Below are positions 2,090 to 62,759 of a stretch of 64,000 nt of DNA, piece by piece; the first letter of the stretch is position 1, and every line of letters begins with the position of its first letter. The stretch comes from Sphyrna mokarran. Its lineage: Eukaryota. Location of the stretch: NCBI GenBank assembly GCA_024679065.1, contig JAGIQG010000002.1, forward strand, positions 116,622,001-116,686,000. Reading direction: 5' to 3'. The translations under genes were made by a program, and so were the position numbers. The notes under the pieces are model-generated. The model did not search any database, had not been told where the DNA came from, and saw only the letters and a program-made list of their open reading frames with translations.

Positions 2090-3312
2090 GTCAGAATTTT
2101 TGCCTTCCTGGAGTGGTGGTGGGTGAAGTTGGCACCAGCAAGTATACAATTTATTTAAAGACATCCATACAAACTAATAACAGGTGCATATATGGAGTAC
2201 AAATTACAGAACTCTTACCTATGGTACCTAATTATCTGACTAGATTTGGGCTCATGGCATTTTCACATTGAAAACCTACTAAAGGTATGAGTTGGGCTCC
2301 TGTAGCATGGATGCAAAGCACAAGCCAGAAAATATGAGCATACATGCTGAAGAAGCATATCTCCAGTTGGCTTTAAAAACTCTTAGTTCTTCCATGACTA
2401 TTGAGTTCCAACTTGCATCTTAGTCACCCAACATACTGCAAGTTTGGAAGGAACTGGTCTGAGTCACTGCACAATGATCTTAAGCCAGTTAGGTTGTTGT
2501 GTTTGATTCAGAGCAACAAAGGAGTCCAATTTAGAAAAGATAGTATCATCTGTTCATGAGTGGCACAGACTGTAAATGCATTTTTGTTATTGGATTGCTA
2601 TAAATTTGCTGGTGCCATTTTAATGCTTGGAGGCAAACCTCGTAATTGAAAGCTGTAGTATCCCATTCCCTGTCTTATGTTCATTTTCATAGTCAAGCAA
2701 ACTGTGGCATTTATATGCTGAGGATTTCTTTATTACCAAGACTTTTGTTAAGTTTGGATAAAATTAGCATTCTTTTTAAACATTTGGAATGATTACAGAA
2801 AATGTTATTTTGTTATGGCTAAGTTTCCAAAGGAAGCAGGGATAGGGATGCTACAGTTACAAAAGCTTTGCTTTGATGTTACTTCCTACAGTGGTGGTGA
2901 TGGCTTTATTTGGTTTTTGGATGAACAAAAAGTTTCAGATTCCACCAAACTGTTATGTTAACCACAAACCCTACCACTAGCATTTGTATATCATAACTTA
3001 AGCCTTCATTTCATTCATTGTGATCACAATGTGAATATAGACTGTGTGCTGTATTACCTGAATATATTAATTCAGGCTGATTAATGAATTCACTGCAAGA
3101 TATGTTTCCTCAGTTTGGGAATAAAGCTGCTTAATTTGCTACCACTTTGGTATATCTGCACCTTCCCTTTGGCCTTTCCGATGTGTATAAACCTTTTGTC
3201 TTCTATAGCTTTGGAACATTTGACGTCTGATTGTAAAGAGATTGGGTAACTTTTAATGAAGGCTACAGGAACTTACACAATTCCTTGCTCAGAAGAGGCT
3301 GAAGTACTGGTT

Positions 3313-3518
3313 AAAAGCAAATTACTGGGGATGCTGGAATCTGAAACAAAAACAGAAAATGCTGAAAAATCTCAGCAGGTCTGACAGCATTTGTGAAGAG
3401 AGAATAGAGCTAAACTTTTCAAGTCTGAATGAATCTTCATCAGTGTTCATAAGAGCTTGAAATGTTAGCTTTGTTGTCCATAGATACTGCCAAACCCACT
3501 GAGATTTTTGTTCTTGTT
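3313..3518. mobile_element. Family B foldback mini-element with hammerhead motif
   Basis: 15-bp TSD gctgaagtactggtt / gctaaagtattggtt (13/15). Tail aaaagcaaattactggggatgctggaatctga. - strand CTGATGA-A-GATTC(attca)GACTT-GAAA at 3417-3443. Confidence 0.8.
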
Positions 3519-4424
3519 GCTAAAGTATTGGTTGGCCATGTGGACACATGCCCATGTTAATTTATCCGATCCTTAAGTTTATGATTTTTTTCAGATTGTG
3601 GTGATGATTTGCTGGATTTTGTTCATTTTTTTGCTGATTTTTGTTCTTCTTGGAGGAACAGGAAGAGTCCCTGAAACCTGTACTGCCACGCAACTAGATT
3701 ATGGCTATTTAAACCTTTAACTCCATTTACCTGTCTTGGCTCCATATCTGTTGATGTTATTATGCACAAAATCTCACCTTTGTATACTGATTCTTTGCTT
3801 GATTATAGTTCAGTATGAACTTGGCAATCTTTGCCTAGGTGGTTGCATCTATGTTTGGTTCTGCGTATCAACTCAATATTCAGTTGTAGAAGAGAACTTC
3901 TACTCTTCACTCAATGTTCAAACACTTAGCCAGTTTAATTGGCTAGTGATCTACAGCAGGAACCATAACTGATTTTCTGCTACCCAGCATGAATTATCTG
4001 AGACCAATGACAGAATGCCTACTGATTCTGATTAAAACCAGCAACTCAGGACAAATTGGAGTCTAATCTATAGGGTTAGGTCAAATCATCTGGGTCTGCA
4101 AAAAAGCCAAATGCCAAAACTCCTTAATAAATTTTAAGCTCAGAATTGAAAGAAATGTAAAAGACTGATTGGAACAAGTGGTTGGTTCATCTACAAAATA
4201 CGATCCATTTTTAAAAAAATTATTATTTATATTTTCAAACTCTACATATAAAAACAGGCAGGGAAAAAATCAATTCAAAAGGTGAAATTTATGAATAGCA
4301 GTCCGGTAACTACATCCATTCTGCTGTTGCAATATTTCAATCCATTTCATACCAACTGTTCTTTTTCTCCCAATGATACCAGTGTTTGCAATTGAGGTTT
4401 GCAATCATCTGAGGTTGGTCAGAT

Positions 4425-4915
4425 TTTTTAAAATTTACTCATTCACAGAATATGGGCATTGCTGGCCAGGCCAGCAATTATTGCCCATTCCTCATTGCCC
4501 TTCAGAAGGTAGTGGTTAGCCATGTTCTTGAACTGCTGCAGTCGATGTAGAGTAGGCCCACAGTGCTGTTAGGAAGGGAGATCCAAGATTTTGATGCAGC
4601 AACAGTAAAGGAACAGTGATATATTTCAATGTCAGGATGTCTTTGAAATATATGTGACTTGGATGGGAGCTTCCAAGTGGTTGCATTCCCATTCATCTAC
4701 TTCCCTTGTCCTTCTAGGCAGTCAAGGTTGTGGGTTTGAGAGGAGTCTGGGAAAGTTACTGCAGTCATTTATCAGCTCAAGCTTGAACATTGCTCAGGTC
4801 TTTGCTGCAGACTGCTGCAGTATCCGGGAGGTCATAAGTGGTGCTCATCATTTTGCAATCATCAGCAAACATTGCCAATTCTAAATTTATGATGCTGGGA
4901 AGGTCACTGATGAAG
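4425..4915 (-). mobile_element. L2/CR1-group LINE 3' fragment
   Basis: Reverse complement of the same 3' tail (gggcaataattgctggcc...gaatgag) as at 38085-39160 and 62455-62525. Confidence 0.7.
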
Positions 4916-6083
4916 ATAGCTTTTGTGATCTCTAGGTTTTAAATTTCTTCGTAGCATATTGGAGTGTCTGTAGAAGTTCTTTCTTTCATTTGCAGATAAA
5001 AATAGAGTCTGCATACATATATTCTGAAGTCACTGTATAGTTTACTCTCAGGAGAACATATTGGCTGATTTTGGCTGTTGGGGTATGTAGATGCTCACTC
5101 ATGGAAAAGCTCTGAGAGGAGGACAGGCGAATTTAGTGACAGTACCTGAATTCAAATAGATTAGCAGAATGTCAAATGTTCGTTCTGCATAGCAAATTAA
5201 TCTTGTACAGTTGGTTCCTTTTGAGGGAATTTTAAAAACCATTGTTAACTTGTGATGATAGGACAGATTGGCTTATTCTCCTCTGTTGTCCTGTGAATGT
5301 GGAAGATGTGTCTGGGTCATGAGACTTCCAGCAAGTGCCTCAAACACTAGGTAGAACTTTCATTAACACATTTGTTCTGAGTTAAGTGGATGCTGCAGCT
5401 GACAAAGAAGTGCTCTAGCCTAAATAGAGAATAGACTCACTAGGCTTGAAATGGTTCTACAATAACATAGGACAAAGAGCAGCATGTCTTTATCATTTAC
5501 CTTTCTGCAACAATCGGAGGGTGATTTGTAAAACATCTATGGTGTTTGATACAATGAGTGAATAGACTTTGATGCATGTGAAAATATGAATATCTCACTC
5601 CATGTCATTTTTTTAATGCCTTCACCTAGTGGTTTGGGATTGCATCTTGGCATTTGTGTTCCCAAGTTTCATTTGGCCTGTGTTTTTTGTTTCATTTGGA
5701 GAGGAAATTGGTACATTGAGCAGAGATCAGATTTGAAGTTGTTTATCAGGGACGGTGGACACGGTTTTAGAGCAATCAGCTTATGGTCAACTCTTTTGAG
5801 ATATTGACCCAGCGAGGAATAATCTTTTAGCACTGCTGTTTGATATAGCATTAGAGCTCTGGCAGAAACTTTAGACATTCTTAGTAAAAGTTAGAAGACT
5901 GAAGATATAGGGGGCGATCTTACCAAAAAATTCTAAATACCGATAGTGTGTGAAAACGGGAAAGTTATGGATCTATTTTTTTCAGCAAGAGAAAATTTAA
6001 AATCTTATCAGAACATAGGTAAAAAGAGGCAAAGTATGATTCTCATTAGTAGGGGGAATAGACAGAGTGCATTCATATACTGA

Positions 6084-6252
6084 GAGAATCATAGAATCCC
6101 TCAGTGCAAAAGGAGGCTATTCGGCCCATCCAGTCTGTACTGACCACAATCCCACCCTATCCCTGTAACCCCAAGTATTTATCCTATCAATCCCCTGATA
6201 CTAAGGGATAGTTTAGCATGGCCAATGCATCCAACCCACGTATCTTTGGACT
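6084..6252 (-). mobile_element. HE1-type SINE 3' half
   Basis: Reverse tail gaatcatagaatccct..ggaggctattcggcccat. Confidence 0.75.
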
Positions 6253-7814
6253 ATTCACGCAATTCATTGCTGACTGTCAGAGGGCGTTATTGCACATGCA
6301 CTTGATCTCCCAATGCACTAATGCACTCCAAGATCACAATAGACTCTTTTCAAGTTCCTCTGGACTGTTAAGAATCCAATCCTAATCTGAAATACAATTC
6401 CCTAACCCTGATGGAAGGTCATTAGGGATTCCTTTGAAACCTTGAATCTGGCCTGCCTTCTGAACATGGGACTGGATTAGCGGCTGAACCACTTTGCATT
6501 AGGACAGCGTAACTTTGTGGATCACCTTCACAGCGAAACAGACAAACCTCAAGAAAGGTTTATTGCACCCTGACAATCTCTACTCTCTCTTGAATCTGGC
6601 TGTCTGGGCGACTCCCAGTTGTATTGATAGTGGATTCTGAATCTGACACAAGGCCTAAAAATATTAAAAGTAAAAATGAAGATCGATATACTTGTATGGT
6701 GTTCTAAGTTATCATTTGCGAGTGTTTTAGATGAGATATTCAATCTAAATGTTTTGTTACGTGTGAGTGAATAGGGATGTGGAACCACGATGAGCAAATG
6801 GAGTTGAGACACAGATCAGCCACGAACTTGTCAAATGGCAACCAGGCTTGAGGACTGACCACTACTATGTTCCTAAATGAGTTGATGTTTCAGAGATAGA
6901 AACGACACAAATGTTCCAATTTGTTTGAATTCTGTTATAATTCATAGGGCAACTGTCATGAAGATGAGGCATATTGTTCTTCATACAATACATAATATAC
7001 TTTAATTTTTCAAACACATATATAAATTGCACTTCTTCAGAATTCATAAATTCATCCAAATACTAAAATAGAGCCACCTCATATTGACAGATGTTATATA
7101 AATTTAGTGGTCCAAGAACACAGTTTTGCCTTCTAAGATGATTTATATATTTTTCAAAATGAATGTCACAAAGCATTCTCAATAGCCTTTATCTTGGCAC
7201 AAATTTATTCTTTGTCTTGCCACAAATTTGCTTTTTTTTTTGTAACTTAATTTTGAATTTTCATTACATAACAAAAGCTATATCATATTAGACAAAAAAA
7301 ATTAAACATGATTGACATTAAAAAATATAACAGAATATTATAGCAACCTTTCGTAAATGTTGATAAAACTTAACATGGGATTGCACTCATTAGTAGTGAT
7401 GTCAAATTAAGATGAAGGATATTATGTTATATGTGCAATATATTGTGTTGACAAGGGGTAGTCATTGAGTTGTACAGCACAAATAACGCCCTTCAGCCCT
7501 ATGAATCTGCACTAATAATAACTACTACTGAAGTCGCATTAATCACAGGTTGAGGGGAGCCATGAAAGACCTTGTACTGCAGTTGGTTTAGAGCCAGAGA
7601 ACAAATTGTAGCATCTTCACCAGAAAAGATCTCACCAAATTTGTAGAGCTCCAAAGGATCAGAGCAGCAAAAGGAAATGAATATGTAGCGCAGACAGTAT
7701 AAAGCCTGGCAGGAAATTGGCACAGTTTGGCTTGCCACCACAGCCCAATCTAAATTTTCCTCCGCTGATGATGGGAAGGCCAAGCCAAGGCCTAAAATCC
7801 TCTCATTCCTCGTT

Positions 7815-8112
7815 GTGGCATGGTGGCACACTGGTTTGCACTGCTGCCTCACAACGCCAGGGACCCAGGTTCGATTCCCAGCTTGGGTCACTCTCTTTGT
7901 GGAGTTTGCATATTCTCCCCTGGGTCTGTGTGGGTTTCTTCTAGGTACTCCAGTTTCCTCCTATAGTCTGGAAGACATGCTGGTTAGTTGCATTGGACAT
8001 GCTAGATTCTTCCTCAGTGTACTCAAACAGGCACTGTCGTGTGGCAACTAGGGGATTTTCACACTAACTTCATTGCAGTGTTAATGTTAGCATACTATGA
8101 CTAATAAATAAA
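7815..8112 (+). mobile_element. tRNA-derived V-SINE (HE1-like) with AATA-type tail
   Basis: A box tggcacactgg, B box ggttcgattcc, V core tgtggagtttgcatattctcccc; tail cttcattgcagtgttaatg...ctaataaataaa. Confidence 0.85.
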
Positions 8113-8795
8113 TTTTACTTCCTTCTTCAGTGATGAACCTGGTAAGCAACAGCAGAATGCCTTTTGGTGTGGCTAATAAAGCCCTGTTACCTGGATGATA
8201 GGTTCATATCTTAGTGTACCTGCAAATGATTCCTTACCCAGGAGTCTGGGCCAGGATATCCTGTGCTCAATGCAAATATAAAATAGGAGCAAGAAATGAA
8301 GATCATTTGGTATATTCACTTTATTAAAAGAATTCAGTCATGGAACTGTGATTCAAAAAAAAAGCAGAAGATGCTAAAAATACACAGCAGATTTATCAGC
8401 ATTTTAACAAAGATCCCAAGTTAAAATGTTGGGTATTGATCCTTCATCCAGTTGTTCCCATCAAAATGAATATTTCTATCCAAAATATTAAACTGTCATT
8501 TTTTTTTTTGTTTCAGCTGCTTTGTATTTTTAACATTGGCATCGTGAAGGGAACATGTGTATTAGTTGGATTGGCATTGCTTAAATTTATGTTGTTCCCA
8601 GATTTGCACATACCTTGTGTTTGTTTTTTTTTCATGTTCTTGATGTATTATTGCTATTTATATTTGAGGCTGAGAAGTAACTACTATTAAAAGTTGCCAG
8701 AACCCCTCCATTCCTAAGAGGCAGTTCATACTAAGACATGCTACCATCTCCCACTTGCAGAAGTTTATGGGAGGCTAGCCAGAAATGTAAATCTA

Positions 8796-10490
8796 GGGCC
8801 ATGCCGATCCCAAAAGATAGTGCGTGGATCTAAAACTCGGCTTCACACCCGACGCAAAAGTTTGCAATCATCCCTGCCCCTTTCTAATGGCATGAGTCCA
8901 ATTAGCATATTTAAAGTAGAATTTAAACATGTACAGCCCATTCAAAACCCAGTGCATGGAATCTTCCAGCCTTTGGGCACTGCGTGATCTGGCACGATGT
9001 TCACACACTCTGAGAATATTAAGGCTCCTGGGTGGTTGGGGACGTAGCTAGGCAGTGTCTATTGAGCAGTGCCCGCTAGGTACCTCAGCACTCCAGTTGG
9101 GCACTGCTTGTGTGCCAGGAGGTGGGGACTGGATGGGAGATAAGTGGGCAGGATTGTGCAAGGGTAGATCATGATGGCAGTCAGTCAAGGGGACTCACAG
9201 GAAGGATCCAATGTGGGCAACCCGTGTTCAGAGATGTGAAATATGCCACCAATGAGGAGGAGTGGGTCCTAATGTCCATGGAGAGTGGGAGAGAATTTCC
9301 CAGTGCACTTAGAGATAAGGATGCCCTTATAGAACAGTGCCTGAGCATTCTGAAGCCAGGCTCACCATTTTATTAAGGCTGCGTTTCTCCAACTTCCCCA
9401 GTATTGGTGCAAAGCTCCCAACTCTCCAAAGAAATGAGTGAGTGTGGGAAGATTACGGTGCGGAGCGCACCTGAGAGACCGGTGTAGATTCACTTTGTTA
9501 TTCTCGCTGTTATCTTTCACATAGGGAGGAATTTTTCCAGAACATTTCTAAGTGTCATAACAACGAGAAACATGATGTGAATCATGCTGGGCTCTGAGCG
9601 AGCTCCGTATCGCAATCCTTCTGCATTCATTTTATTGTAGAGTTGGGAGCTTGCCGCCAGTACGGGGAAGTGGTGGTGATGGGGGGGAGCAGAGGGAACT
9701 TAAACATGCTGGTGAAATCAGCTTCAGAGCAGTGTGCTGTGTTGTTGTAAACAACAGCCCAATCTCATGGCTCACGGTGCACAGCCCACCACTCTCAGAC
9801 ATTGGGTCCTCTTTTCCTCACCCGTCCGACCCACCTACATCAGCAACATATCCTCTCCTCGCCCTGACACTGGTCATCTGCACCAGGACTATCCCACTAG
9901 GTCCCCTGTCTGACCCCGACATGCCACCCCCTATATTTCCTCAGCTATTCCCCCTCATCATTGTGACCTTTGACATGCCCTACCCCCCTATCATGACCCC
10001 CTTTGCGATTCACCCCTACGTGACTCACCCTTATAAGACTCCCCTGCATGTGTTCCTCCTCCCCTCCGGCATTGCCGCCCTACTTACCTGGCATGCTGAT
10101 GCTGCCTGATATCCACTGCCGGGGTGTCTGGTGGGCACTGCCGGGGTGTCAGGTAGGCGCAGCCTGACTTGCAGTGTCCACCATGCCCCCCCGCCATCAC
10201 CTGCCCCAGCGTGACCAGTTCGCCAGGTCTGCAGTAGTGTTTCACAGTGGACATTGCATCTCGTCAGGGAGATGGGAGACATGCATGGTGAACTCCCTAA
10301 CGGTATTGAAATCCAGCCAATCTCATGCTAATGAACTTCACATCCTTCCTGGGCATGAAGCATTCACACTCCTTGGAAGAAGCCAGGTAGATCAGAAGTT
10401 TTTCTTTTGCGCTAGGTGCGAATCAAATTTTTAGCTTAGCATGCTATTTTCCCTGACGGCCTAGCGCAGCAAGGTCGTAAAATTGTGCCC
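8796..10490. mobile_element. Probable Harbinger-type non-autonomous element(s) in the CARMIL1 intron
   Basis: Begins GGG and ends gtaaaattgtgccc; flanks cta / tta resemble a 3-bp TWA TSD; G-rich then C-rich interior. May be composite. Confidence 0.4.
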
Positions 10491-14851: not shown

Positions 14852-15928
14852 CAGTTATTCCCAACCTTTTATATGTCATGGCACACCTCTATACTATATG
14901 AAAACAAGGGTTTCAGGCGTACTTCCTACTTTTCTCTGTCTTCCTCCCTTACTGGGAACTTTGGTTTTAGCTTTTCTGTGCTCTTGTCTGTTTTTCTGAC
15001 TTCTCACCGAGTCTCTTGTGTCTCCGAGGGTTTTTGTGTCCTTCTTGAGTTTTTCTGGGCGCATGAAGATAAAGGTTTATCTTCAGCTCCAAGTCCCGTT
15101 GATCACGCACATGGGCCTGACCAACATAAAAAAATCTTAGTCACAGTTTCTTCCAGCTGGCGGATCTATGGGAGGCCCAAGATTTGTCAGGTCGTGGAGA
15201 TGTCAATCATAGAGCAGAAGTCAAAGGTTTTATTAGCTTTTATTGGTAGTGGGATTGAATTTCGGAGCCGCAACGTCATGTTGCAACTGTACAAAACTCT
15301 AGTGCGGCCGCACTTGGAGTATTGTGTACAGTTCTGGTCCCCACATTATAAAAAAGATGTGGAGGCATTGGAGAGGGTACAGAGGAGGTTTACCAGGATG
15401 TTGCCTGGTATGGAGGGCAGGTCTTATGAAGAGAGGCTGAGGGATTTGAGGTTGTTTTCGTTAGAAAGGAGGCGGCTAAGAGGGGACCTAATCGAAACAT
15501 ATAAGATGATTAGAGGTTTAGATAGGGTGGACAGTGATAGCCTTTTTCCTAGGATGGAGAAAGCTAGCACGAGGGGACACAGCTTTAAATTAAGGGGTGA
15601 TAGTTATAGGACGGATATCAGAGGTAGGTTCTTTACCCAAAGGGTGGTTCGGGAGTGGAATGCCCTGCCTGCAGCAGTTGTAGATGCGCCAAGTTTGGTG
15701 GCGTTTAAGAGGTTAGTTGATAAGTATATTGGAAGAGAAGGGAATGGTTTAGTTTGGAGGGGCATTGCTTTTTATATTGGTTGGCGCAACATCGAAGGCC
15801 GAAAGGCCTGTTCTGTGCTGTAATGTTCTATGTTCTAAGATTAGATTTAGTTTAATTACATGAATTTTGAATGTATTTTCATAGCACTCTTGGAAGATGT
15901 GCTGTGGCACACTGGTTGGAAACCACTG
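14852..15928. mobile_element. hAT (Charlie-like) MITE interrupted by a CR1-linked insertion
   Basis: TIRs cagttattcccaacc / ggttggaaaccactg; 8-bp TSD ttctaaag / ttctaaaa, resembling the NTCTAGAN preference. Confidence 0.75.
15229..15837 (+). mobile_element. Young CR1/HER1-type LINE 3' fragment
   Basis: [21 protein letters not shown]...RRRLRGDLIE...TRGHSFKL...FFTQRVV; tail taatgttctatgttcta. Confidence 0.95.
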
Positions 15929-17224
15929 TTCTAAAAGCCTCAAATCTAATCCTGTCAAAAGTCTTTGCGTTTCCAAAATAAAATTTTATGACTTTCCCAG
16001 CCTAGCCTGAAAACTATGAACTTTAAACTGTGCAGCAATCAAGTGACTCTCTTCTGAATCTTTTGAACAGTTTCAGTTCCCTGCCAAGAGAGCAAAACAA
16101 AATCATGCACCATATTCTGGAATGCAACTGGCCCCAAAGCCTTGATCAATTAGAAGGTTTTTATATTTATTTGCTAGCTGTGCCACTGCATTCAATTTTG
16201 CAAAACTGGTCATGAATTGTCTGTGACTCGTGACCTATAATCTATTTTTATCAGTATAGATCTCCTTTGACATTTTTCATGTTAAATGGGTGGATTGATT
16301 TCTTTTTTGCATCATTGATTTTGGATTTAAATATAACTAAATATTTTAAATATATATTTTAATTTATGCTTTGGTGATTGAATTGCCCAATTTTTTGTGG
16401 GAAAGTAAGTAGCTTTTATTTTGTGTAAAAGTGGGACTCCCAAGCTGGGAGTCAGTGTAGGGTCTTCAGGGGGTCTGTGGAACTGGTAGCTGTTGCATTT
16501 ACTGGCAAGAGCCTGTTTGAAAAGAACAAGCAGCCAATTTCAAAAAATAACAACAGCAATGAAATAAGCCAGTCAGAGCAAGGTTTCTTCGAGCATTGGA
16601 CAGTCAAGTCTATCAGCATTCAATACGCCAAGAAACTTTTTTCTGGCCCATTTGATGTATTCCATCTCACTGTCGCAGTGCAAAAGAGCCCACAGCTTTT
16701 TGGACAATGATTGGACCTGAAAATTGAGCCCATGGCAAAAAGGAGCAGGCAGAAGCTGCGTGGGAGTGTTTGAGCCTTGGAGCGAGTTTGTGTGAGGAAA
16801 TTACATGGAAGATGAGACATAATATATTAACTATCTTTTATATTCTGTGATATTAACCATGACTAGGAAATCTTCCAGTTGCCCTATAAAACCTTTTAGT
16901 TAATCTACACAAGCTAGCAATTTGTTTCAAAGGTCAATGACATTTGGTGAGAATGACTCCTTAAAATCTAGGGCAAGATTCTCCGGCTTCCCTTCAATGT
17001 GTTTCTCAGTGATGAGAAGCAGCCCACCATTGGCCAACAATGGGATCTTTTGATCCCCCCTCTGTCTATAGGATTTCCCTTTGGTTCCACTCCATGCTGT
17101 TGGGAAAGCTGTGATAGGAGTGCATCCCAGTGATGTGAACAGCTGCAAGATATATCCTCTAATCCAGCATACTTCAGCACCGGCTTAAGACATAGAAATC
17201 AAGCTTGCTGTCATACACCTCATA

Positions 17225-19523
17225 TGCAGTGCTGATGATGACTGGGAACGCTTCAGGGATGCTGTCCATACATCTGCATTGAAGATGCTCGGACCCTGTA
17301 CCCACAAGCAGTGTGACTGGTTCGATGAGAAGGATGAGGAGATACAGGCTCTACTTGTTGAAAAGCACCATCTTCATTGGGCCTGTCAGAATGACCCATC
17401 ATCAGCTGCCAAGAAAAATGCTTTTGCCGGTGCTCACAGAACAGTACAGAACAAATTGCGTAAAAAGCAGGATGCCTGGCTAAGCGCCAAGGCAAATGAA
17501 ATATAGGGATACGCTGACAGAAATGACTTAAAACAGTTCTGTGAAGTCCTTAACACTCTCTATGGATCTTAATCTCTCGGGAGATCCCTCCTGCTCAGTA
17601 CAGATGGTACAGAGAGGGCTCAGATCCTGCAGAGATGGGCTGATGACTTTGAAGCTGTCCTCAACCAACCGTCATCGTGAGTGATGAGGCAATAGACAAG
17701 ATTTCCCAGGTTGATATCAACAGCGTCATGGATGACTCACTGGTAGTAGCCAAAGTCACAAAAGCTGTCAGCTAGCTATCCAATGGCAAAGCCACAAGGA
17801 CACATCCCATACCCGTAGAGATTTGCAAAGCTGCTGGTCCTATATTTATCGAGAAGTTCACCCAGTTGTTCCAGTCCTTTTGGAAGCAAGGATCCATTCC
17901 TCAGGAACTTAAAGATGCTTCCATCGTACACCACTACAAGAGGAAGGGCAAAGGGCAAGTATGCAACAGCCACCAAGGAATCTCGCTGCTCTCCATCACA
18001 GGAAAAACCCTCAGAAGAGTCCTGCTAAATTGTCTGATCATTCATCTGGAACTGAGCCTGCTGCCAGAGTCATAGTGTGACTTCCGCAAAGGTTGCGGGA
18101 CTATTGACGTGATTTTTGCTGCGCACCAACTTCAGGAGAAGTGTCATGAGCAGAATTGCGAGCTCCACACAGCCTTTGTTGACCTTGCGAAAGCCTTCAA
18201 AACTGTAAGCTGTCAAGGTCTGTGGAGGATCATGTCAAAGTTCAGTCGCCTTCCCAAATTCATTCAGATGGTACACCACTTCCATGATGGCATGATGCCC
18301 AGGGCATTGGATGGCAGAGAATCTTCTGCGACATTCCCAGTCACCAATGGCATCAAACAGGGCTTTGTGCTTGCACCCACACTGTTCAGCATGATGTTTA
18401 CTACCATGCTGAATGATCCCTTCCAGGACAGTGTTGCTGGAATCAGCCTCAAGTACAGAGTGGATGGGAAGGTCTTCAACCTTGGAGACTTCAAGCTATT
18501 ACCAAAGTGAAGGAGACTGTTCTGAGATACTTCCTGTTTGAAAGCGCCCTGCGCCCTGTATGCTGGCTCAGAGTCAGAGATACAAGTCAGAATAGACAAG
18601 TTTTCTGCGGTTTGTGACAACTTTGGACTCACCATCAACATTAAAAAGACCAAAGTCATACATCAGCCTGTTCCTCATGCACCGTACACAGAACCCATAA
18701 TCACAATCAAAGGACAGAAGCTATAGGCAGTGGACCAGTTCACTTGGCAGCACGCTCTCCCAAGCAGTGACTATTGATACAGAAGTTAGCTGCAGAATAG
18801 CAAAGGCAAGTTCTGCTTTCGGTAGACTGCGTTCCACTGTATGGGAACATTGAGGAATCAGCCCAGCAACAAAACTGAAGGTCTACAGTGCTGTGGTACT
18901 CTCTATCCTCCTGTATGTCTGTGAAATGTGGACTGTGTATCGAAGGCATGCAAGACAGCTCAATCATTTCCACGTGACTTGTCTTCGCAGAATATTATGC
19001 ATCAGATGGCAAAACAAAGTACCAGACACTGAAGTCCTCTCTAGTGAAAGTCTACCATCAGTCCACACACTGCTGATAAGAGTACAGACCCAGTGGGTAG
19101 GTCATGTCATCTGTTTGTCAGATGAGTGCATACCCAAGCACCTCCTTTTTGGAGAACTCTGTGTTGAAAGACGCTCACATGGAGGGCAGAAGAAACATTT
19201 CAGAGATACACTCAAGGCTTCTCTGTAGTCGCTGGACATAGATACAACCACCTGGGAAACCACCCTACCTAGCGCTGCCTCATTCACAAAGGCTGTCCAG
19301 CTTATAAAGTAAGGAGTACTGTTGAAGCACAACATAAACGTGAGCTGCTCAAGTCCAGAGCTATTAGTGCAACAACTACAATGCCTACACAAGTCTGTCC
19401 AATATGTGCCAGGACGTTCCATGCCTGAATTGGCCTGATCAGTCATTCTTTGGACAGGTCGCAACCACCGTCAAAATGACGAATGGTGTCAAGGTCCTCA
19501 TGGATGACGATGGACAAACAACA
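17225..19523 (+). mobile_element. RTE-clade LINE, 5'-truncated, degenerate
   Basis: RT motifs MIFAAHQLQEKC, AFVDLAKAF, GIKQGFVLAPTLFS, FGLTINIKKTKV; C-terminal LRRILCIRWQNKVPDTEVL, GGQKKHFRDTLKASL and a CPxCxRxF zinc-finger remnant. Confidence 0.9.
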
Positions 19524-20245: not shown

Positions 20246-20262
20246 TATTTGGGGATTTGTTT

Positions 20263-23094: not shown

Positions 23095-23249
23095 ATGGTA
23101 TTTGTTTATGTCCTCCAGTTTTCTCCCATCCAGCTCCCTTTGTCAGAGAAGAGAACACTTGAAAGGAGCTGCAAGTTACATCAGCTGGAACACTGCATTT
23201 TACAACATTTCTCCTGCTCACCCCATCTCGCTTTATAAGACAGCCCACT

Positions 23250-23621
23250 TAGAACATAGAACATTACAGCGCAGAATAGGCCCTTCGGCCTTCGATGTTG
23301 CGCCGACCAATTAAGAAAAAGCAATGACCCTCAAACCTAAACCATTCCCTTTTCATCCATAAACTTATCTACTGACCTCTTAAACACCCCCAAACTTGGT
23401 GCATCTACAACTGCAGCAGGCAGGGCATTCCATACCCTTATGGGTAAAGAACCTACCTCTGACATCCGTCCTATAACTACCACCCTTTAATTTAAAGCTA
23501 TGTCCCCTTGTGCTAGCTTTCTCCACCCTAGGAAAAAGGCTATCACTGTCCACCCTATCTCAACCTCTAATCATCTTACATGTTTCAATAAGGTCTCCTC
23601 TTAGCCGCCTTCTTTCTAACG
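23250..23621 (-). mobile_element. Young CR1/HER1 3' fragment
   Basis: Starts with tagaacatagaacatta (reverse tail); reverse complement of the subfamily at 15229. Confidence 0.9.
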
Positions 23622-25309
23622 ACACTTCTACTTGACAAGTCACTGGTGTGAATTGAACAGAGCTTCTGGAGCAGCTCCCTTCACATCGCACATCCGCACG
23701 CAGGAGGAATGTTCATAATGCATGTGGAGGCTGCTCGCTCCCTCAGCACTGATGCCAAGCCCCACCCCTTCCACCAACCCCCATGCAGTGCTCCATGCCT
23801 GTTGAAGGGTGAAGGAGTCTATGGTCACCCCACCTCACTGGGTGCATTGAAGTGAGGCAAGACATACTGTTGCCAATGGGCCTTGGACTCTGACATGTTG
23901 GGAGTCTTGGTGGATTGAGTGACCAATGATGAGATTTACCTTGGCAGAATGAACAAGGTCATTCATCCGTGTGTGACACTGGGCTGCTCACATCCTGTGC
24001 ACCCCTGAAGGACTGGCTTCATCAGCCACCCGCCCCACTTTGATTTCTCGGTTGGTCTGTCAGGTCTTCCTGACCTCGACATGGTTGAGGAGCACCCACA
24101 GAGGGCAGCGTTAAACTTAGATGCTTCATAACTTCTGCCCTTAGTGATATCTATGCTTCAGTTGGTGCTGACAGTAAGGATTTCAGGTGCCTTTTAAACA
24201 TACTGCCCTGATATGATGGCAGGATGTGTGTCATTAGGTGTGCCTCATCACAGAATATAGTGCAAAATACCCAGATGTGTAAGTTATGAGGTTGAGGATG
24301 GATGATCTGATGTGGATTGCTGTAAACCTCTGCAATCTCTTCCTTTGATTTTATTCCCCTGTGGAGTTGACTTTTGGCAGTGTGTATCAATTTCCCTATC
24401 TCTCCACTTTGAAGTTACTACTTGTTTTCTTTAGTCGTTTCTGTAAAATAGTTGGTTTCTACTAATAAGCTTAATGCACATCATTTCTCCAGCCATCTGC
24501 CTCTAATCAACTCTCTACTTTATTTTGTTTTTTATTCTTAATTTTCTCCAATTCTTAACATGATGTACAATATTCATTCGTAAATGAATAAATTCATTTA
24601 TCTAAGAGCAAAAAATTAATGTTAGAAAATGTCGGTAATATACCGAGTTGCATCAGCAATCAAAAGGCGGGCATTTTGTGAATATCTACAAAGTAAAATG
24701 GATAAGTTAGATTTCAAGGATGCTGAAGAATGTCACATTATTTCATAGCAACTGAGCAGTGGCTGGAATGATGAATGTTTCAATTTATTTAAAATTGTGC
24801 AGAAAGATTCTAACAGGAAAGCAATTTGTACATGAGATTCAGGTTTTAAAATGATTTTTTTTGACAGTGGCATTTCTTGAACTTATGGACATTGATAAAA
24901 TAGTGCTAAAATGGAAATTCTCAGCTTTTTTCATGCTATCATTCTGTGTCACAACAAATTATTATATTTATGCACAAGTGACGTGTACAGAAGGATGCAT
25001 TGCAAGTGATACAGAGATATAGGGAGGATGGGAATAAACCTGATCCAGACACTTTTGGATAGAACTGGAACAATGTAAATTGTAGATGGAGGCTCTATGG
25101 AAAAAAAAAACTTTTGTAGCAAAGGGTTTCCTCTAATGGGAGTTCTGGCTTATGGTGTTCATATAAATTTAGCAGCTTTACATATAGTGTAAATTAAAAT
25201 TAGTAACCAGCCAAATTGGATAATCATTAAGAAAACATTTCTTGTTTCCTTCATATTAATAACCAAAAGACAACCTTGTCTTTGTTCAATGATATTAAAT
25301 CATTTACGC

Positions 25310-25542: not shown

Positions 25543-27317
25543 ACATATTACATACACAACATACATACACTATAAATTACATCCAAGAAAGAGGTTGAAG
25601 ACTGCCCCAGGAGTTGTCAGGTGCTGTTTAAAAACAAAACCCAGTGCTGTCTGACTTTGGCCCAAAGTTAGAACAAAAGAATGCTCTCCAGGCCTGCCAC
25701 TCACATTCCCTCATGCCTACATGCTTCCCTGGTCTCTCATGCTCTCTATGCCAAACTGCCCCATGGTCCCTCATGTCCTTCATGCAAAGCTATGGCACTT
25801 CACATCCAATGACCCATGATAGAACCAAATAACTCCATAACGGAAAAAAAACTTTCAAAAAAGGTATTAATTCATTACTTACACTGCATAAAGTATTTTC
25901 ACTACAGCCCTATAAAAGTGTCAATCATCTTGGCCCCTTTAAAGTATCAATAATAGAAACTGAGAGCACTTGGAACCTCAGCCTTCTGTAAATAAACATT
26001 ATGCAATTGACAGCATGGATCAGAGTGCCTAAGCAGTGAAGACATTTTTTCCATCAAGTGTTTGATTACAATAATGGCTATCTGGACTCTCAGCTTGAAA
26101 CACATCATGAGGCTTGACTGAAAATCCAGAAATCCATTACTCTGATAAAATACCTAAGCCTCAGGAAACATTGCTTGATTGCTCTTTTTAGCATGTTGAA
26201 GAGCTATAAAATATTCTCTTACACGTTCTAATATCGCTAAAGGGTTCATTGGCCCTCTTTACACTATATAGAAACCAATGTGCATGGATGTAACATATAG
26301 TTAGGCTTTGGGACATGAGGGGCCCTGGGTGTGGGTGAATGGGTATAGCTTGGCATGGATTGGATGGAGGATCATGGATTGATATCGAAAATATGAAGAA
26401 CCAAGGGGTGGGTGGAGAGCCATAATCTGTCATGAAGAGGCACTTGGGGAGGGCCATAGCTTAGTATATTAAGTGTAGCAAGCTGGGGTACAAATGAGGG
26501 ACATAATTGAGAAAGTTCTTCTGAACTCAACCTTTTAAAAGGTCCCCTCACATAGACTATCATTTATGACTCCTCCGGGACATTGTCAATTGTGACTCTC
26601 TAAAAACTTGGTCCACTTCCATGAGAATTGTGGATGAGTGTGACCTCATTTTCTACAAAATGGTACCAGCCAGATCAGGTGTCAGATGCAGGCTTACGAT
26701 CAGAATCAGCCCAAAGAGGCAGTCCTGAAAATCAGACAGTCTGGGCGTGGGGAAAAGAATACTGAATTCACACCCACACACCATTTTTAAAAAGTTCCTA
26801 AGTCATCCCAACTGGGTGAAATTCCAGACCATACATTGAAACTGTCCAAAGTTGAGAAATAGAATTAAATTCTAGATGTAATTGACAAAGGGCATTTTTT
26901 AACTTTTAAAGTGTTTGATCCTGGCCTTTTATAAAATTATCTTCATGTTTGTTCTTGTGACTTCTAGAAAACTTGGCTTGGACTAAATTAAATGAAATGA
27001 CCCGCGGCTATGACTGCTTGCGAGCCCAGACAGACTTGAGTGCTTTCCACCAGCTTTTACCTTGAAAGCTTTTCGGTCTTCTGTTCCTGTCCAGTTTATT
27101 TATCTTTTTGCTGAAAGCATTGTAAATGATCTCCATATTTTTATTTTTATGCTATTAGGAGGAAGATGAAGAAAATGGAAGGGAAAAAAATTCAGTGTAA
27201 TCTTTAAAATTATACAATTTGCAATGAGTAAAATTTTTTGGTGAGATTAAAGTGACCATCCTGGCGGACACTAAAAAAAATAGCCATGCAGGCAAAAGTA
27301 TGACATATTCTAGAAAT

Positions 27318-47423: not shown

Positions 47424-47494
47424 ATAACGGCTACATTGAAGGCAAGGAACTGGATGACTTTTTCCGTCACCTCATGAAGAAGCTAGGTACTGAA
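47424..47494 (+). CDS. SCGN: Secretagogin exon 2 (EF-hand 1 loop and helix)
   Basis: ctctccctag| (D)NGYIEGKELDDFFRHLMKKLGTE |gtaagt. Completes EF-hand loop DADDNGYIEGKE in frame with exon 1. No exon 3 was recognised within the window. Confidence 0.95.
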
Positions 47495-48174: not shown

Positions 48175-50307
48175 TACTGCAGGGCAAGAATTATAGCTGG
48201 GGGAAAAGAAATTATGATGTGATTAGATGAGATTTAGGATGCATAGGATGTGGAAGGAAACTGCAGGGTATGGGCACAATTGAAATGTGGAGCTTCTGCA
48301 ACGAACTGTCCTTGATAAGTATGTACCTTTCAGGCAGGGAGAAAGTGGCCGAACGAGGGAACCATGGCATACTAAATAAGTTGAATCTCTTGCGAAGAGG
48401 AAAAAGGAGACTTGTGAGACATGAAGGCTCAGTTAGGGCTTTTGAGAGTTACAAGTTAACCAGAAAGGACCTAAAAAGAGAGCTAAGAAAAGCCCGAAAG
48501 AGACATGAGAAGTCTTTTGCAGGTAGGATCAAGGAAAACCCTAAAGCTTTCTAAAGATATGTCAGGAATAAAAGAATGACTAGGGTAAGATTAGGGCCAG
48601 TCAAAGACAGTATTGGAAAGTTGTGTTTGGAGTCTGAAGAAATAGGAGAGGCGCTAAATGAATATTTTTCATCAACATTCACACAGCAAAAAGATAATGT
48701 TATCGAGGAGAATACTGAGATACAGGCTATTAGACTATTTGGGGTTGAGGTTCATAAGGAGGAAGTGTTAGCAATTGTGGAAAGTATGAACATAGATAAG
48801 TCCCCTGGACCGGATGGGATTTATCCTAGGATTCTCTGGGAGACTAGGGAGAAGATTGCAGAGCCTTTGGCTTTATCTTTAGGTCATCATTGTCTACAGG
48901 AATAGTTCCAGAAGACTGGAGGATAGCAAATATTGTCCCCTTGTTCAAGAAGAGGAATAGAGACCATCCTGGTAATTATAGACCAGCGAGCCTTACTTCT
49001 GTTGTGGGCAAAGTTTTGGAAAGGATTAAAAGAAAGGATTTATAATCATTTGGAAAGACAATTTGATTAGGGATAGTCAACATGGTTTTGTGAAGAGTAG
49101 GTCGTGCCTCACAAACCTTATCAAGTTCTTTGAGAACTGACCAAAGAGGTGGGTGAGGGTAAAGCAGTTGATGTGGTGTATATAGATTTCAATAAAGCAC
49201 TTGATAAGGTTCCCTATGGTAAACTATTGCAAAAGATATGGAAGCATAGGATTGAGGGTGATTTAGCAGTTTGGATCAGAAATTGGCTAGCTGTAAGAAG
49301 ACAGAGGATTGTGGTTGATGGGAAATGTTCAACCTGGAGTTCAGTTACTAGTGGTGTACTGCAAGATGTGTTTTGGTGCCACTGCTGTTTGTTACTTTTA
49401 TAAATGACCTAGATGAGGTGTAGAAGGATGGATTAATAAATTTGCGATGACACGAAAGTTGGTGGAGTTGTGGACAGTGCGGAAGGATCTTGCAGGTTAC
49501 AGAGGGACATAGATAAGCTGCAGAGCTGAGCTGAGAGATGGCAAATGGAGTTTAATGCAGAAAAGTATGAGGTGATTCACTTTGGAAGGAGTAACAGGAA
49601 TACTCTAATGGTAAGTTACTTGGTAGTGTGGATGAGCAGAGAGATCTCGGTGTCCGTTTGCATAGATCCCTGAAATTTGGCACCAGGTTGATAAGGTTGT
49701 TAAGAAGACATATGGTATGTTAGCTTTCATTGGTAGAGAGATTGAGTTTCAGAGCAATGAGGTCATGTTGCAGCTGTACAAAACTCTGGTGCGGCCGCGC
49801 TTGGAGTATTGCGCACAGTTCTGGTCACTGCATTAAAGGAACGATGTGAAAACATTGGAAAGGGTGCAGAGGAGATTTACCAGGATGTTGCCTGGTTTGA
49901 AGGGAAGGTCTTATGAGGAAAAGCTGAGGGATCTGAGGCTGTTTTCATTGGTGAAGAGGTGACTTAATAGAGACATACAAGATCGTTAGAGGATTAGATA
50001 GGGTGGACTGTGAGAGCCTTTTTCCTCAGATGGAGATGGCTAGCACGAGCGGACATAGCTTTTAATGGAGGGGTGATAGATATAGGACAGATGTCAGAGA
50101 TAGATTCTTTATTAGTAGTAAGTGGAATGGCCTGCCTGCAACAGTAGTGGACTCACAAACATGAAGGGCATTTTAAATGGTCATTGAATAAACATATGGA
50201 TGATATTGGAATAGTTTAGGTTAGATGGGCTTCAGATTGGTTTCACAAGTCGGTGCAACATCAAGGGTCAAAGGGCTTGTACTGTGCTGTAATGTTCTAT
50301 GTTCTAT
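48175..50307 (+). mobile_element. CR1/HER1 LINE, ~2.1 kb 3' part, SCGN intron 2
   Basis: IKENPKAF, DKSPGPDGIYPRIL, VDVVYIDFNKALDKV; tail aatgttctatgttcta. Confidence 0.93.
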
Positions 50308-52771: not shown

Positions 52772-53357
52772 GCCGCAGCATCATGTTGCAACTGTACAAA
52801 ACTCTAGTGCGGCCGCACTTGGAGTATTGTGTGCAGTTCTGGTCCCCACATTATAAGAAAGATGTGGAGGCATTGGAGAGGGTACAGAGAGGTTTACCAG
52901 GATGTTGCCTGGTATGGAGGGCAGGTCCTATGAAGAGAGGTTGAAGGATTTGAGGTTGTTTTCGTTAGAAAGGAGGCGGCTAAGCGGGGATCTTATTGAA
53001 GCATATAAGATGATTAGAGGTTTAGATAGGGTGGACAGTGATAGCCTTTTTCCTAGGATGGATAAAGCTAGCACGAGGGGACACAGCTTTAAATTAAGGG
53101 GTATGAGTTATAGGACGGATATCAGAGGTAGGTTCTTTACTCAAAGAGTGATTAGGGAGTGGAATGCCCTGCCTGCAGCTGTTGTAGATGCGCCAAGTTT
53201 TGTGGCGTTTAAGAGGTTAATTGATAAGTATATGGAAGAGAAGGGAATGGTTTAGTTTGGAGGGGCATTGCCTTTTATTTTGGTCGGCACAACATCGAAG
53301 GCCGAAGGGCCTGTTCTGTGCTGTATTGTTCTATGTTCTATGTTCTATGTTCTATGT
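52772..53357 (+). mobile_element. Young CR1/HER1 3' fragment
   Basis: Nearly identical to 37013-37582; tail (tgttcta)x4. Confidence 0.95.
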
Positions 53358-53456
53358 TAAAATGGGCCTGTTTGAAATTTAAAAGAATGAGGGGTGATCT
53401 CACTGAAACTCAGAAAACCCTGAGAAGGTTTGACAGGGTAAATGCTGGGAGGATGT

Positions 53457-53890
53457 CAAAGGCAAATTATTGTGGATGCTGGAATCTGAAACCAAATGGG
53501 AAAATGTTGGAAAATCTTAGCAGCTCTGGCAGCATCTGTAAGGAGAGAAAAGAGCTGATGTTTGGAGTCCTGACGACCCTTTGTTAAAGCTAAAAAGGAT
53601 AGAAAGTGGGAGATATTTACGTTGTAGAATGAGGGAATGAAAGATTATCCATAACCACAAAAACAAGGGGAAAGACTGCTAATGGCAGCCTATAGAGAGA
53701 ATAGGAGATGTGAAAGTTCAAACAACAGAAAAGCTGAAATAAGAGGGTAAGGTGTAACAGATGAAGATGTGGGGAAGGGGAAAGATGGGTTAAAGAGAGG
53801 TAAAACAGAAAAAAAGGAAAGCAAGTGGAGGAAGTGTAAGAAAAGGGGAAAGAATGGGGGGGGGGAAGGAAACTAAAGAGAGACAATGAA
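53457..53890 (-). mobile_element. Family B longer pLTR fragment (tail, arm, hammerhead remnant, purine-rich body)
   Basis: Same tail and arm as family B. - strand gctttaacaaagggtcgtcaggactccaaacatcagctc is a hammerhead-like remnant, followed by ~300 bp of A/G-rich sequence. Interrupts an old CR1. Confidence 0.6.
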
Positions 53891-54506: not shown

Positions 54507-54796
54507 ATAGAACATAAAACATTACAGCGCAGAACAGACCCTTCAGCCTTCGATGTTGCGCCGACCAATTAGGAAAAAGCAATGACCCACTAACCTAAAC
54601 CATTCCCTTTTCGTCCATAAGCTTATCTACTAACCTCTTAAACTTGGCGCATCTACAACTGCCACAGGCAGGGCATTCCATACCCTAACCACCCTCTGGG
54701 TAAAGAACCTACCTCTGATATCCGTCCTGTAACTACCACCCCTTAATTTAAAGCTATGTCCCCTCGTGCTAGCTTTCTCCATCCTAGGAAAAAGGC
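54507..54796 (-). mobile_element. Young CR1/HER1 3' fragment
   Basis: LFPRMEKASTRGHSFKLRGGSYRTDIRGRFFTQRVV on the - strand; reverse tail tagaacataaaacatta. Confidence 0.9.
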
Positions 54797-58894: not shown

Positions 58895-59081
58895 AAAGCA
58901 AAATACTGAGGATGCTGGAAATCTGAAATAAAAACAAAAAATGCTGGAAAAACTCTGCAGGCCTGGCAGCATCTGTGGAGAGAGAAACAGCATTAATGCT
59001 CTGAAGAAGAGTCATATGGACTCTAAACATTTACTGTGTTTTTCTCTTCGCTGATGCTGCCAGACCTGTGTAGATTTTCCA
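58895..59081. mobile_element. Family B foldback mini-element with central hammerhead remnant
   Basis: Tail aaagcaaaatactgaggatgctggaaatctga; centre CTGAAGA-A-GAGTC(atatg)GACTC-TAAAC-ATT at 59001-59031. Confidence 0.8.
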
Positions 59082-61050: not shown

Positions 61051-61190
61051 ATGTGGTGATGCCGGCATTGGACTGGGGTTAGCGCAGTAAGAAGTCTCAC
61101 AACACCTGGTTAAAGTTCTGACTCACCTGATAAAAGGGTGCTTCAAAAGCTCGTGTTGGACTTTAACCTGATGTTGTGAGACTTCTTGCT
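61051..61190. mobile_element. Family A foldback element with one central decayed hammerhead
   Basis: Tail atgtggtgatgccggcattggactggggtt; arms agtaagaagtctcacaacacc.../...gttgtgagacttcttgct; centre ctcacctgataaaagggtgcttcaaaagctcgtg. Confidence 0.8.
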
Positions 61191-61725
61191 TTGCACGACA
61201 ATCTGCGACAACTTTATGATCACTTCCTTTTCAAAGCATCAAATATTGTTTATTTGTTCAACCTTTGATATCAAGTAAGATAGCCAGAATATTGTCTCCA
61301 TTTTTGAAATGAATTCTTTGGTGAGTGATGAGACTTCTATTATGTTTGAAATGAGCATCTTCAGTTAATAAATAACAGAAGTGTGCCTCATCAGGATATA
61401 TTTAGTCCACCTAGTAAATGGGAAATCTCATAGCAAACAGTCCACTCTCTTATCCCTGACAGCTACAGCTACACTTGCCAACAGCAATCAAGGAGAAATG
61501 GAACGATTTGTACTTCCATCAAAGCTCAGAAGGGCAACTGTAATACTTGTATTGACTCCGATTAGCTAAAAGCACAGAATTTGGCCTCTTCCACATTAGT
61601 GTCTCACAGCACAGTGATTTTTCAAGCTGAATCATTGAGTAAGTTCTGCGCTCTTGTATTTGCCTAGAATGCCATGTGAAGGGCTCCATTGTCATAAACC
61701 AGAAGAGAAGCTGTCACCATTCACA

Positions 61726-61919
61726 AAAACAGAAAAATTCAAGAAAATCTCAGCAAGTCTGAGAGCATCTGTGGAGAGAATAGAGGCAACGTTACAAGTC
61801 TGGCCAAAGGGACATTCAGACTCAAAACGTTGGTTCTATTCTCTCTCCACAGAGGCTGTCAGATCTGCTGTTTTTCTGTTTTAGTTTCAGATTTCAGCAC
61901 CCACTGTATTTTGCTTTTA
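61726..61919. mobile_element. Family B foldback mini-element (tail on the right)
   Basis: Perfect 14-bp TSD tgtcaccattcaca (61712-61725 / 61920-61933); inverted arms; centre gggacattcagactcaaaacgttgg is a stem II/GAAAC-GTT remnant. Confidence 0.85.
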
Positions 61920-62759
61920 TGTCACCATTCACAGTTGTCTTAGACTTTGTCTTCTAAGCAGAATTATAGCTTAGAAGAGATAGCAAAATGTTGTTATCTT
62001 TTGTCAATCTACTTTGACTTTAGCTGCTTTTTTGTTGCTTCTGGCAACTTTGCCTGTATTACCACCTGATTTTTCCACATTCAATGTAAGTCAGTGGAGA
62101 AGAAAACACAAAATTATTGTAGGAGACTACATTGTTTTGCAAATGCATAGTTATAAACATTACAATATCCAATGTATTAGTTGCATATTTACAAGTTTAC
62201 AGCATGAACGCTATCTGTACTCTTGGTCTAACAGAGTACCTTCCACTCAGTACCATTCACTTCTTTATCTTCAGCACCAAGTCCCCATCCCTTACTCACC
62301 CCCACTCCCACAGAAAGGACAGGCACTTGGATTGGTACCAAAAGTATTGGCACGTAGACTGTTAAGTTTAAATGTTACTGAAAGCAATATAATTCCTTTT
62401 AAAAAAAAGGAATGAAAATCATTTTCCTTTGTGAGAATAATTTAAATTTAAATTATTCAAGGGCAACTAGGGATGGGCAATAAATACTGGCCAGCTAGCG
62501 ATACCCTGTGAATGAATAAAAAAAGGTGGCCCCAGAAAGCAATCTGTTGTTTTATTCCAGAGGTGACAATAGCTATAACTTCTGTTACAAAAATAAAATA
62601 CTCATGCACAACTATAAGTTCTGTGTTTGCTAGTTTGTTATTGACGATTGTGGGGAGGTATGACAGAGAGAGTGTCTTTAGGAAAATTGTGCTATAAGGT
62701 GACTTTAAAGGCAAGTGATGGACTGAATAAGGTTCTTAAAGCTGTTTGGGACAAGCTGA

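Follow-up and report, generated by a model that had tools for sequence, protein, structure and literature searches.

Endonuclease-containing (EN+) Penelope-like elements (PLEs) of the Neptune clade (Arkhipova 2006, via Craig et al. 2021, PMC8557442) carry one open reading frame (ORF) that encodes a reverse transcriptase (RT), a CX2-5CxxC linker and, at its C terminus, a GIY-YIG endonuclease. That account also describes pseudo-long terminal repeats (pLTRs) in partial tandem that contain a hammerhead, an inverted 5′-truncated copy and a 30–40 bp tail at one end. The Penelope of Adineta vaga (Arkhipova et al. 2013, PMC3846280) has head-to-head inverted pLTRs with target-site duplications (TSDs) and palindromic junctions, an optional 31-bp tail on one pLTR, and a putative TATA box and initiator within the pLTR. 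We analysed a 64,000-nt stretch of the Sphyrna mokarran genome (the window; source assembly, 2.77 Gb) and found that it contains copies of a repeat, family B, that resembles both systems in these respects. Comparison of its sequence with known elements indicates that a broken Penelope-like retroelement of the RT/GIY-YIG type almost certainly has family B as its end repeat, a pLTR composed of a minimal hammerhead, an arm and a 34-nt tail. The hairpins of family B are likely dead-end Penelope insertions, formed when each of the two cut target ends primed a short cDNA and these cDNAs joined head to head. Family B differs from the Neptune-clade elements described in PMC8557442 in its very many stubs of 100–190 bp and in TSDs that are not microsatellites. 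It differs from the A. vaga element, for which few copies and TSDs of 8–10 bp are reported (PMC3846280), in its very high copy number and TSDs of 9–17 bp.

The copies had originally been read as products of a second Penelope lineage, and linkage of the arm to a Penelope ORF was found for both subfamilies of family B, termed B1 and B2. The single-arm B1 copy at 53457 extends past the arm into ~280 bp more of the element's 3′ untranslated region (UTR), and the CT-rich stretch beyond its arm was common to 40/40 scored genome matches. Walking upstream from the arm through the 3′ UTR revealed a 5′-truncation gradient, followed by broken reading frames. Using tBLASTn with full-length RT plus GIY-YIG homologues (~900 amino acids), we found RT, then endonuclease, then arm in collinear order, the RT pieces being 32–54% identical to the homologues. 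Nearly all of the 37 homologues of this ORF carry PF00078 and/or PF26215 and several carry PF01541; the best named homologue, from Chiloscyllium, shows 51% identity. Three loci (L152, L136 and L120) match the C-terminal part of homologues P0009 and P0018 in alignments, and both of these homologues lie above the Pfam cut-off for GIY-YIG. Matches in a protein-cluster atlas (0.92–0.95) included GIY-YIG and HTH_animal clusters and serve as a lead only. One result counts against the assignment: the ORF pieces by themselves score below the Pfam cut-offs (RVT_1, 24.5 bits versus 29.6; GIY-YIG, E = 0.21), so that the assignment depends on the homologues. An RT search returned 8,854 candidates, of which the 150 scored have open frames of 83–414 amino acids, with no intact copy of the ORF seen among them.

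A C-X4-C-X2-C motif precedes the endonuclease in L121 and in homologue P0002. Since a CX2-5CxxC linker before GIY-YIG is a mark of Neptune, shared with Nematis (PMC8557442), this motif by itself makes membership of the Neptune clade likely. Full-length copies have the arm on both sides of the ORF, at its 3′ end and ahead of its start, as pLTRs, and we infer a unit of ~3.2 kb. Among 30 ORF-start loci, all B1, the arm and tail lie directly upstream in 12, including 5 partial tandems and 5 starting at −34 to −30 (by eye; positions here and below are counted from the predicted cleavage base). A composite tandem arrangement is likewise described for the D. virilis Penelope (PMC2377424). B2 arms are also ORF-linked (L073 and L257), with ORF DNA ~70% identical to that of B1. 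Full-length B1 copies (L275, L280 and L288, ~1340–1400) show, directly after the tail, a stretch resembling a branch point, then an acceptor-like AG rich in pyrimidines and then a likely start codon; as in the D. virilis Penelope, this order suggests that a 5′ intron has been retained. One B1 ORF copy (L145, ~2300–2800) carries a 14-codon tandem expansion in the endonuclease linker region.

A second repeat with the same architecture, family A, is directly proven to be a PLE end by the window element at 30399–33395, which includes an inverted 5′ piece at 30862–31131. As had been proposed, the two families are unrelated in sequence: in 16 comparisons the DNA of their repeats was no more alike than that of shuffles, and RT pieces from the two are ~33–40% identical. 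We therefore regard them as separate lineages. The suggestion that two unrelated sequences sharing one design point to a mechanism-driven class stands as regards the shared design; the class is that of PLEs, which is already in print.

The original prediction gave family B a single hammerhead consensus with a 5-bp stem I and a palindromic AACGTT stem III. The hammerhead itself is real, since an exact-core pattern of the C3–G8/GUU type had 29 matches in the genome and none in reversed control; the corresponding U3–A8/GUC pattern had 115 and a looser core pattern 2,132, again with none in control. In detail it is a minimal type I hammerhead with a 4-bp stem I (AGCT paired with AGCT or GGCT), an extra base after A9 and a 5-bp stem II. 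Its palindromic helix III comprises ACGT only (positions 15.1–16.1), the outer A and T of the proposed palindrome being core bases. The minimal hammerheads of metazoan PLEs (Cervera and de la Pena 2014, PMC4209133) are alike in being of type I, with a 4-bp helix I, an extra base between positions 9 and 10.1, a G10.1–C11.1 pair, a palindromic 15.2–16.2 and no helix III loop, and differ in a helix II of 7–8 bp.

The family is equally real, although it comprises two subfamilies rather than one consensus. At 7 diagnostic sites outside the core, 338 arms split into B1 (134), B2 (91) and unclassified (113), and the copy at 53457 falls in the U3–A8 subfamily. Of the B1 arms not selected by core, 83/90 carry T3/A8, while the 22 such B2 arms include 10 with C3/G8 and 5 with C3/A8, the last being the product expected from CpG decay of C3/G8. 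A hand count of the core pair in 100 listed matches among the 2,132 looser ones gave 61 T3A8, 21 C3G8, 15 C3A8 and 3 T3G8 (Fisher P = 3 × 10−9); further core-pair counts rest on 18 hand-picked, mostly core-selected copies. The U3–A8 swap is a single inherited double change rather than the outcome of many events, and it is predicted from the sequence to preserve the C3–G8 tertiary pair. The cleavage triplet is GUC in B1 and GUU in B2. A U3–A8 variant is known from Schistosoma Cercyon (PMC4209133); in family B it defines a whole vertebrate subfamily beside a C3–G8 sister. The existence of this subfamily points to selection on the fold of the ribozyme, although the copied RNAs were mostly uncut. 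On the opposing side, isolated 40-nt hammerheads folded no better than shuffles (z = −0.44 and −1.42), with a predicted fold that mispairs the core.

We then examined the ends of the copies, which occur as solo arms or as head-to-head pairs. The 3′ ends are bimodal, at ~+66 and ~+100, the difference being the ~34-nt tail. Among 75 head-to-head pairs (hairpin 2 of the window, L001, counted once, and two pairs of L150, a more diverged B-like variant, included), 63 were short and 12 long. Exactly one tail was present in 57 of the 63 short hairpins, with 4 having none, 2 a partial tail and 0 two. The long pairs comprised 9 one-tailed, 2 two-tailed and 1 untailed; the two-tailed ones, with a spacing of ~1 kb, are possibly separate insertions. 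In subsets not chosen by hairpin likeness, 27/30 hairpins had one tail (P = 8 × 10−6 versus 0.5). The one-sided tail noticed earlier in the window holds for 4/4 of its hairpins. TSDs exceeded the 99% control level in 31/66 one-tailed pairs and were 9–17 bp long, with no microsatellites seen among them. The two perfect 14-mers and the 13/15 match noticed earlier were read directly at 33855/34060, 61712/61920 and 3298/3519. Their generalization to a class of 14–15 bp proved too narrow, and the variable lengths are equally unlike the fixed short TSDs (2–9 bp) of DNA transposons.

The inner junctions of the hairpins were mapped in 50 cases and vary between hairpins. In 20 of them it is the tail-less arm that extends further upstream and in 12 the tailed one, while in 18 the two end within 10 nt of each other. 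Both arms extend to ~−34 in 6 hairpins, 3 of which (L080, L227 and L242) share their central 3–4 bases and have no loop; in these three the arms meet at the palindromic AGCT, as if two cDNA ends had annealed. In all classifiable pairs (31/31) both arms belong to one subfamily. We lean towards the view that hairpins arose by priming from both target ends. In vitro, an Anolis PLE cuts and extends both target strands and starts reverse transcription at two internal sites bounding the tail, its template being for the most part RNA that has not been cleaved (Frangieh et al. 2024, PMC11167929). Three observations weigh against this view. The remaining 35/66 one-tailed pairs lack a significant TSD; the same-subfamily arms could merely reflect separate periods of activity; and arm identity did not differ within and between hairpins (0.857 versus 0.849, P = 0.21, n = 29), so that a shared RNA template for the two arms is unsupported.

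The strongest rival is that the hairpin forms by self-priming, one cDNA folding back or switching template onto itself and the tail arising when the endonuclease resolves the intermediate (Arkhipova et al. 2013, PMC3846280; Craig et al. 2021, PMC8557442). No second primer would then be needed to account for the single tail and for both arms being of one subfamily. Palindromes are reported at junctions in A. vaga (PMC3846280) and the AGCT at −34 is itself palindromic; the same account allows other templates and so leaves room for self-priming. However, self-priming predicts a nested, shorter tail-less arm, and the tail-less arm is the longer one in 20/50 hairpins. The loop-free junctions of L080, L227 and L242, moreover, fit two annealed cDNA ends better than a loop of zero bases. 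The copy number of family B is what allows such geometry to be counted, and the counts argue against pure fold-back; we consider self-priming the less likely route.

The 5′ ends gather at one site. In 74 unselected arms (from a random sample and an arm-pattern search), 25 ends fall at −37 to −31, compared with 7 at −30 to −21, 3 at −49 to −38 and 2 at −2 to +4, so there is no pile-up at the cleavage site. Similarly, 41/64 core-selected arms that reach −31 stop there. Solo copies starting at this hotspot are flanked by a TSD in 11/40 cases versus 1/44 for solos truncated further in, and only 4/27 hotspot-start copies share upstream sequence, indicating that these are true insertion ends. Minor clusters of 5′ ends lie at ~−13/−12, in the stem II loop, and at +7 to +9; older B-like subfamilies (L150 and L157) may have produced the latter through their alignment.

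Stem I begins with the base at −34, and TATAAA lies 30 nt upstream of that base in the majority sequences of both B1 and B2. Family A has a TATA-like box 29–31 nt before stem I and a similar stop in ~12/28 cores (by eye). This arrangement suggests that −34 is probably the transcription start. Two points speak against it: the B2 upstream majority was built from 4 copies only, and the D. virilis Penelope promoter is described as TATA-less and internal (PMC2377424). In addition, the intron of D. virilis Penelope ends where helix I begins on its 5′ side (PMC4209133), so the same position can be read differently, namely that −34 marks a splice acceptor or a stop of RT at RNA structure. A pyrimidine tract followed by AG lies exactly at −34 in B1 and B2, as that reading would have it. 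The AG, though, is retained in most copies ending there, and the family A stop site has none, which makes a splice acceptor the weaker explanation; the upstream flanks are also unrelated (4/27), without a common first exon. An RT stop fares no better, as RT meets the structure first on its 3′ side (+1 to +4), where only 2/74 ends lie, and neither version accounts for the TATA-like box ~30 nt upstream in B1, B2 and family A. We regard both as improbable relative to a transcription start at −34.

Combining these observations, we propose the following course of events. Transcription would start at −34, directed by a TATA box in the upstream partial-tandem copy, and the element's endonuclease would cut the target with a stagger. 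RT would begin inside the RNA at two sites (+66 and +100). Starts at the downstream pLTR would yield long 5′-truncated copies, and starts at the 5′ pLTR run-off cDNAs of 100 or 134 nt, that is, the stubs. The two target ends would use different sites, +100 at one and +66 at the other, probably with a single uncleaved RNA serving both, and the short cDNAs from the two ends would join head to head; use of different start sites by the two target ends would give exactly one tail per hairpin. The hammerhead would be under selection in active master elements, as the U3–A8 swap hints, while copied RNAs would usually remain uncut and genomic copies decay neutrally. In its fullest form this reading treats the stubs as a genome-scale fossil record of Penelope integration, with a start at the first base of the hammerhead, a borrowed TATA box and one dimeric ribonucleoprotein priming both ends 34 nt apart on one uncleaved RNA. 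We put this forward tentatively, at somewhat short of even chances. If true, ‘strong-stop-like’ cDNAs of 100 and 134 nt join head to head, sometimes via the palindromic AGCT, and one rule covers why the tail is one-sided, why a pLTR is inverted and why tandems are needed, in two unrelated families.

The proposed course resembles that of Poseidon_Ac, the Anolis element (PMC11167929), in its two internal RT starts bounding the tail, extension of both strands, uncleaved template and predicted dimer. Poseidon_Ac belongs to a different clade and its ORF starts in stem II, whereas the likely start codon of family B lies just downstream of the tail. The parts of that account available to us describe neither the one-tail coupling nor a gathering of 5′ ends at stem I. 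Non-LTR retrozymes (bioRxiv 10.64898/2026.07.22.740005) share a PLE pLTR origin and a type I hammerhead; they are described as head-to-tail tandem arrays with intact ribozymes, in contrast to the dispersed solo or head-to-head copies and decayed cores of family B. We rejected this assignment for the window and sampled copies, which are solo or head to head and not tandem arrays, no genome-wide array search having been made.

In LINE-1 (long interspersed nuclear element 1) twin priming, both target ends prime cDNA and a head-to-head join leaves a TSD together with a 5′ inversion. The cDNAs there come from separate parts of the RNA, whereas in family B the same end region is copied twice, from starts 34 nt apart.

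It is very unlikely that the short hairpin moves as a non-autonomous unit in its own right, be it a miniature inverted-repeat transposable element (MITE) or fold-back DNA transposon, or a retrozyme-like or SINE-like (short interspersed nuclear element) RNA remobilized by PLE proteins. The huge copy number, long inverted arms and TSDs would suit such a unit. The centre junction, however, varies among the 50 mapped hairpins with no master hairpin evident, the ends are asymmetric, TSDs range from 9 to 17 bp and the RT/EN ORF has the arm in collinear order at its 3′ end. A MITE or fold-back transposon was rejected on the same grounds, symmetric terminal inverted repeats, a fixed short TSD and a single master structure not being found. 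Least credible of all is that the copies are selected host features, such as active intronic ribozymes or microRNA precursors: stable hairpins (−108 kcal/mol for the predicted fold of hairpin 2), 144 exact cores and three copies in secretagogin have to be set against Rfam microRNA matches far under gathering scores that reflect long hairpins, mutation of every core in the window, intact boxes in 1/36 sampled arms and the failure of minimal hammerheads to cleave as monomers (PMC4209133).

We estimated abundance from 600 kb taken at fixed coordinates of 14 large contigs, small contigs lying outside the sample. This sample contained 40 family B arms in 34 insertions, and a profile search of the same length of reversed control DNA gave 0 arm matches. 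Extrapolation to the genome gives ~157,000 insertions (95% range 109,000–220,000); family A, with 43 insertions in the sample, extrapolates to ~199,000, for a combined ~350,000 relics. An exact 36-mer of the arm occurs 1,339 times in the genome and 0 times in control. The very large ribozyme load that had been expected genome-wide is thus borne out in number, yet consists of relics: of 36 sampled arms, 17 span the core and 1 has intact catalytic boxes, and exact cores total 144 genome-wide (29 C3–G8/GUU and 115 U3–A8/GUC). Median divergence from the subfamily majority is 8% for B1, a figure biased to best matches, and 12% for B2. Nearly all cores are decayed, for which we propose neutral decay, and the family is apparently dead. 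By comparison, 4,000–9,000 minimal hammerheads are reported for coelacanth and Xenopus under a stricter descriptor (PMC4209133), far below the combined load estimated here. One family A inverted pair is present twice, in opposite orientation and with 0.8 Mb between the two (L304/L305 and L307/L308; contig C1, ~0.82 and ~1.64 Mb), either a segmental duplication or a duplicate of assembly.

Much of this architecture is known: inverted pLTRs, a one-sided tail of 30–40 bp and TSDs (PMC3846280, PMC8557442) and the minimal hammerhead of PLEs (PMC4209133) are all published. Family B is a real, very abundant and apparently dead addition to this class and may already have a repeat-library name. Our literature searches turned up no report of 5′ ends piling up at stem I or of the tail coupling, on which the supplementary figures of PMC11167929 (S2, genomic copy coverage) may bear, and none on shark Penelope hammerheads, Penelope twin priming or a pLTR with transcription start and TATA box. 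The value of the family lies in what it reveals about how PLEs form inverted pLTRs and the one-sided tail, and about the role of the hammerhead. Its regular stub ends likely record where the RNA started and how it was copied into DNA. The end counts give testable rules (one tail per insertion, non-nested arms, and 5′ ends at stem I rather than at the cleavage site) that connect the 2024 in vitro result (PMC11167929) with genomic products.

Within the window, a search with a profile built from genome copies found 11 family B arms in 6 insertions, none with intact catalytic boxes (Table 1). The four hairpins and the single arms at 27398 and 53457 all lie where they had originally been placed, and families A and B together account for 12 insertions, in line with the earlier count of about ten. 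The TSD of hairpin 4 was read by eye, the automatic alignment having run into it.

Table 1. Positions of family B copies, their TSDs and selected neighbouring features in the window (coordinates count from its first nucleotide).
Feature	Position	Strand	Description
Hairpin 1, left TSD	3298–3312	+	13/15 match to 3519–3533
Hairpin 1, tailed arm	3313–3449	−	C3–G8/GUU type; degraded hammerhead, arm, 34-nt tail at ~3313–3346
Hairpin 1, tail-less inverted arm	3446–3518	+	Degraded
Hairpin 1, right TSD	3519–3533	+	13/15 pair with 3298–3312
Older weak arm fragment adjoining solo copy	27308–27394	−	Profile score 23 bits
Solo tailed copy	27398–27512	−	5′ end ~−32, the unit-start hotspot; G12 mutated
Family A Penelope-like element	30399–33395	+	Broken RT/EN ORF at 31217–32970; family A arms at both ends
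Hairpin 2, left TSD	33855–33868	+	14/14
Hairpin 2	33869–34059	−	Subfamily B2; most of hammerhead core lost
Hairpin 2, arms	33869–33972; ~33978–34059	−; +	Tailed; tail-less
Hairpin 2, right TSD	34060–34073	+	14/14
Secretagogin exon 2	47424–47494	+	Gene confirmed by comparison with solved structures
Single arm, 5′-truncated copy	53456–53880	−	Subfamily B1; CT-rich 3′ UTR, degraded U3–A8-type hammerhead, arm, tail
Hairpin 3	58895–59081	−	No significant TSD; secretagogin intron 2
Hairpin 3, arms	58895–58987; 58991–59081	−; +	Tailed; tail-less, start at −33, G12 mutated
Hairpin 4, left TSD	61712–61725	+	14/14
Hairpin 4	61726–61919	+	Secretagogin intron 2
Hairpin 4, arms	61726–61803; ~61800–61919	−; +	Tail-less; tailed, with partial core
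Hairpin 4, right TSD	61920–61933	+	14/14

The earlier suggestion that some copies lie in host introns is confirmed by the secretagogin gene, which runs on the + strand with exon 1 near 45630 and its later exons within the next 40 kb. Because exon 2 is in the window and exon 3 lies ~2.5 kb beyond its end, the copies at 53457, 58895 and 61726 fall within intron 2, which is ~19 kb long and repeat-rich. None of the three has an intact core, and the copy at 53457 is antisense. Among 377 non-repeat open frames, Pfam searches of the longest 150 revealed none from a host gene, secretagogin being spotted by eye instead, and an Rfam scan of the window (E ≤ 1) gave no hammerhead family match, only sub-threshold microRNA hairpin matches.

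Other repeats in the window include young LINE 3′ ends, 93–99% alike and ending in a short tandem-repeat tail, at 15216–15839, 36943–37583, 49703–50307, 52772–53341, 23248–23622 and 54508–54796, which we take to be CR1-like. A 20-bp minisatellite of ~9 units lies at 35215–35394. LINE remnants are also found at 17189–18507, with an RVT_1 match at 18076–18507 (E = 2 × 10−12), and at 63025–63318, and RTE-like peptide text was recognized in these remnants by eye.

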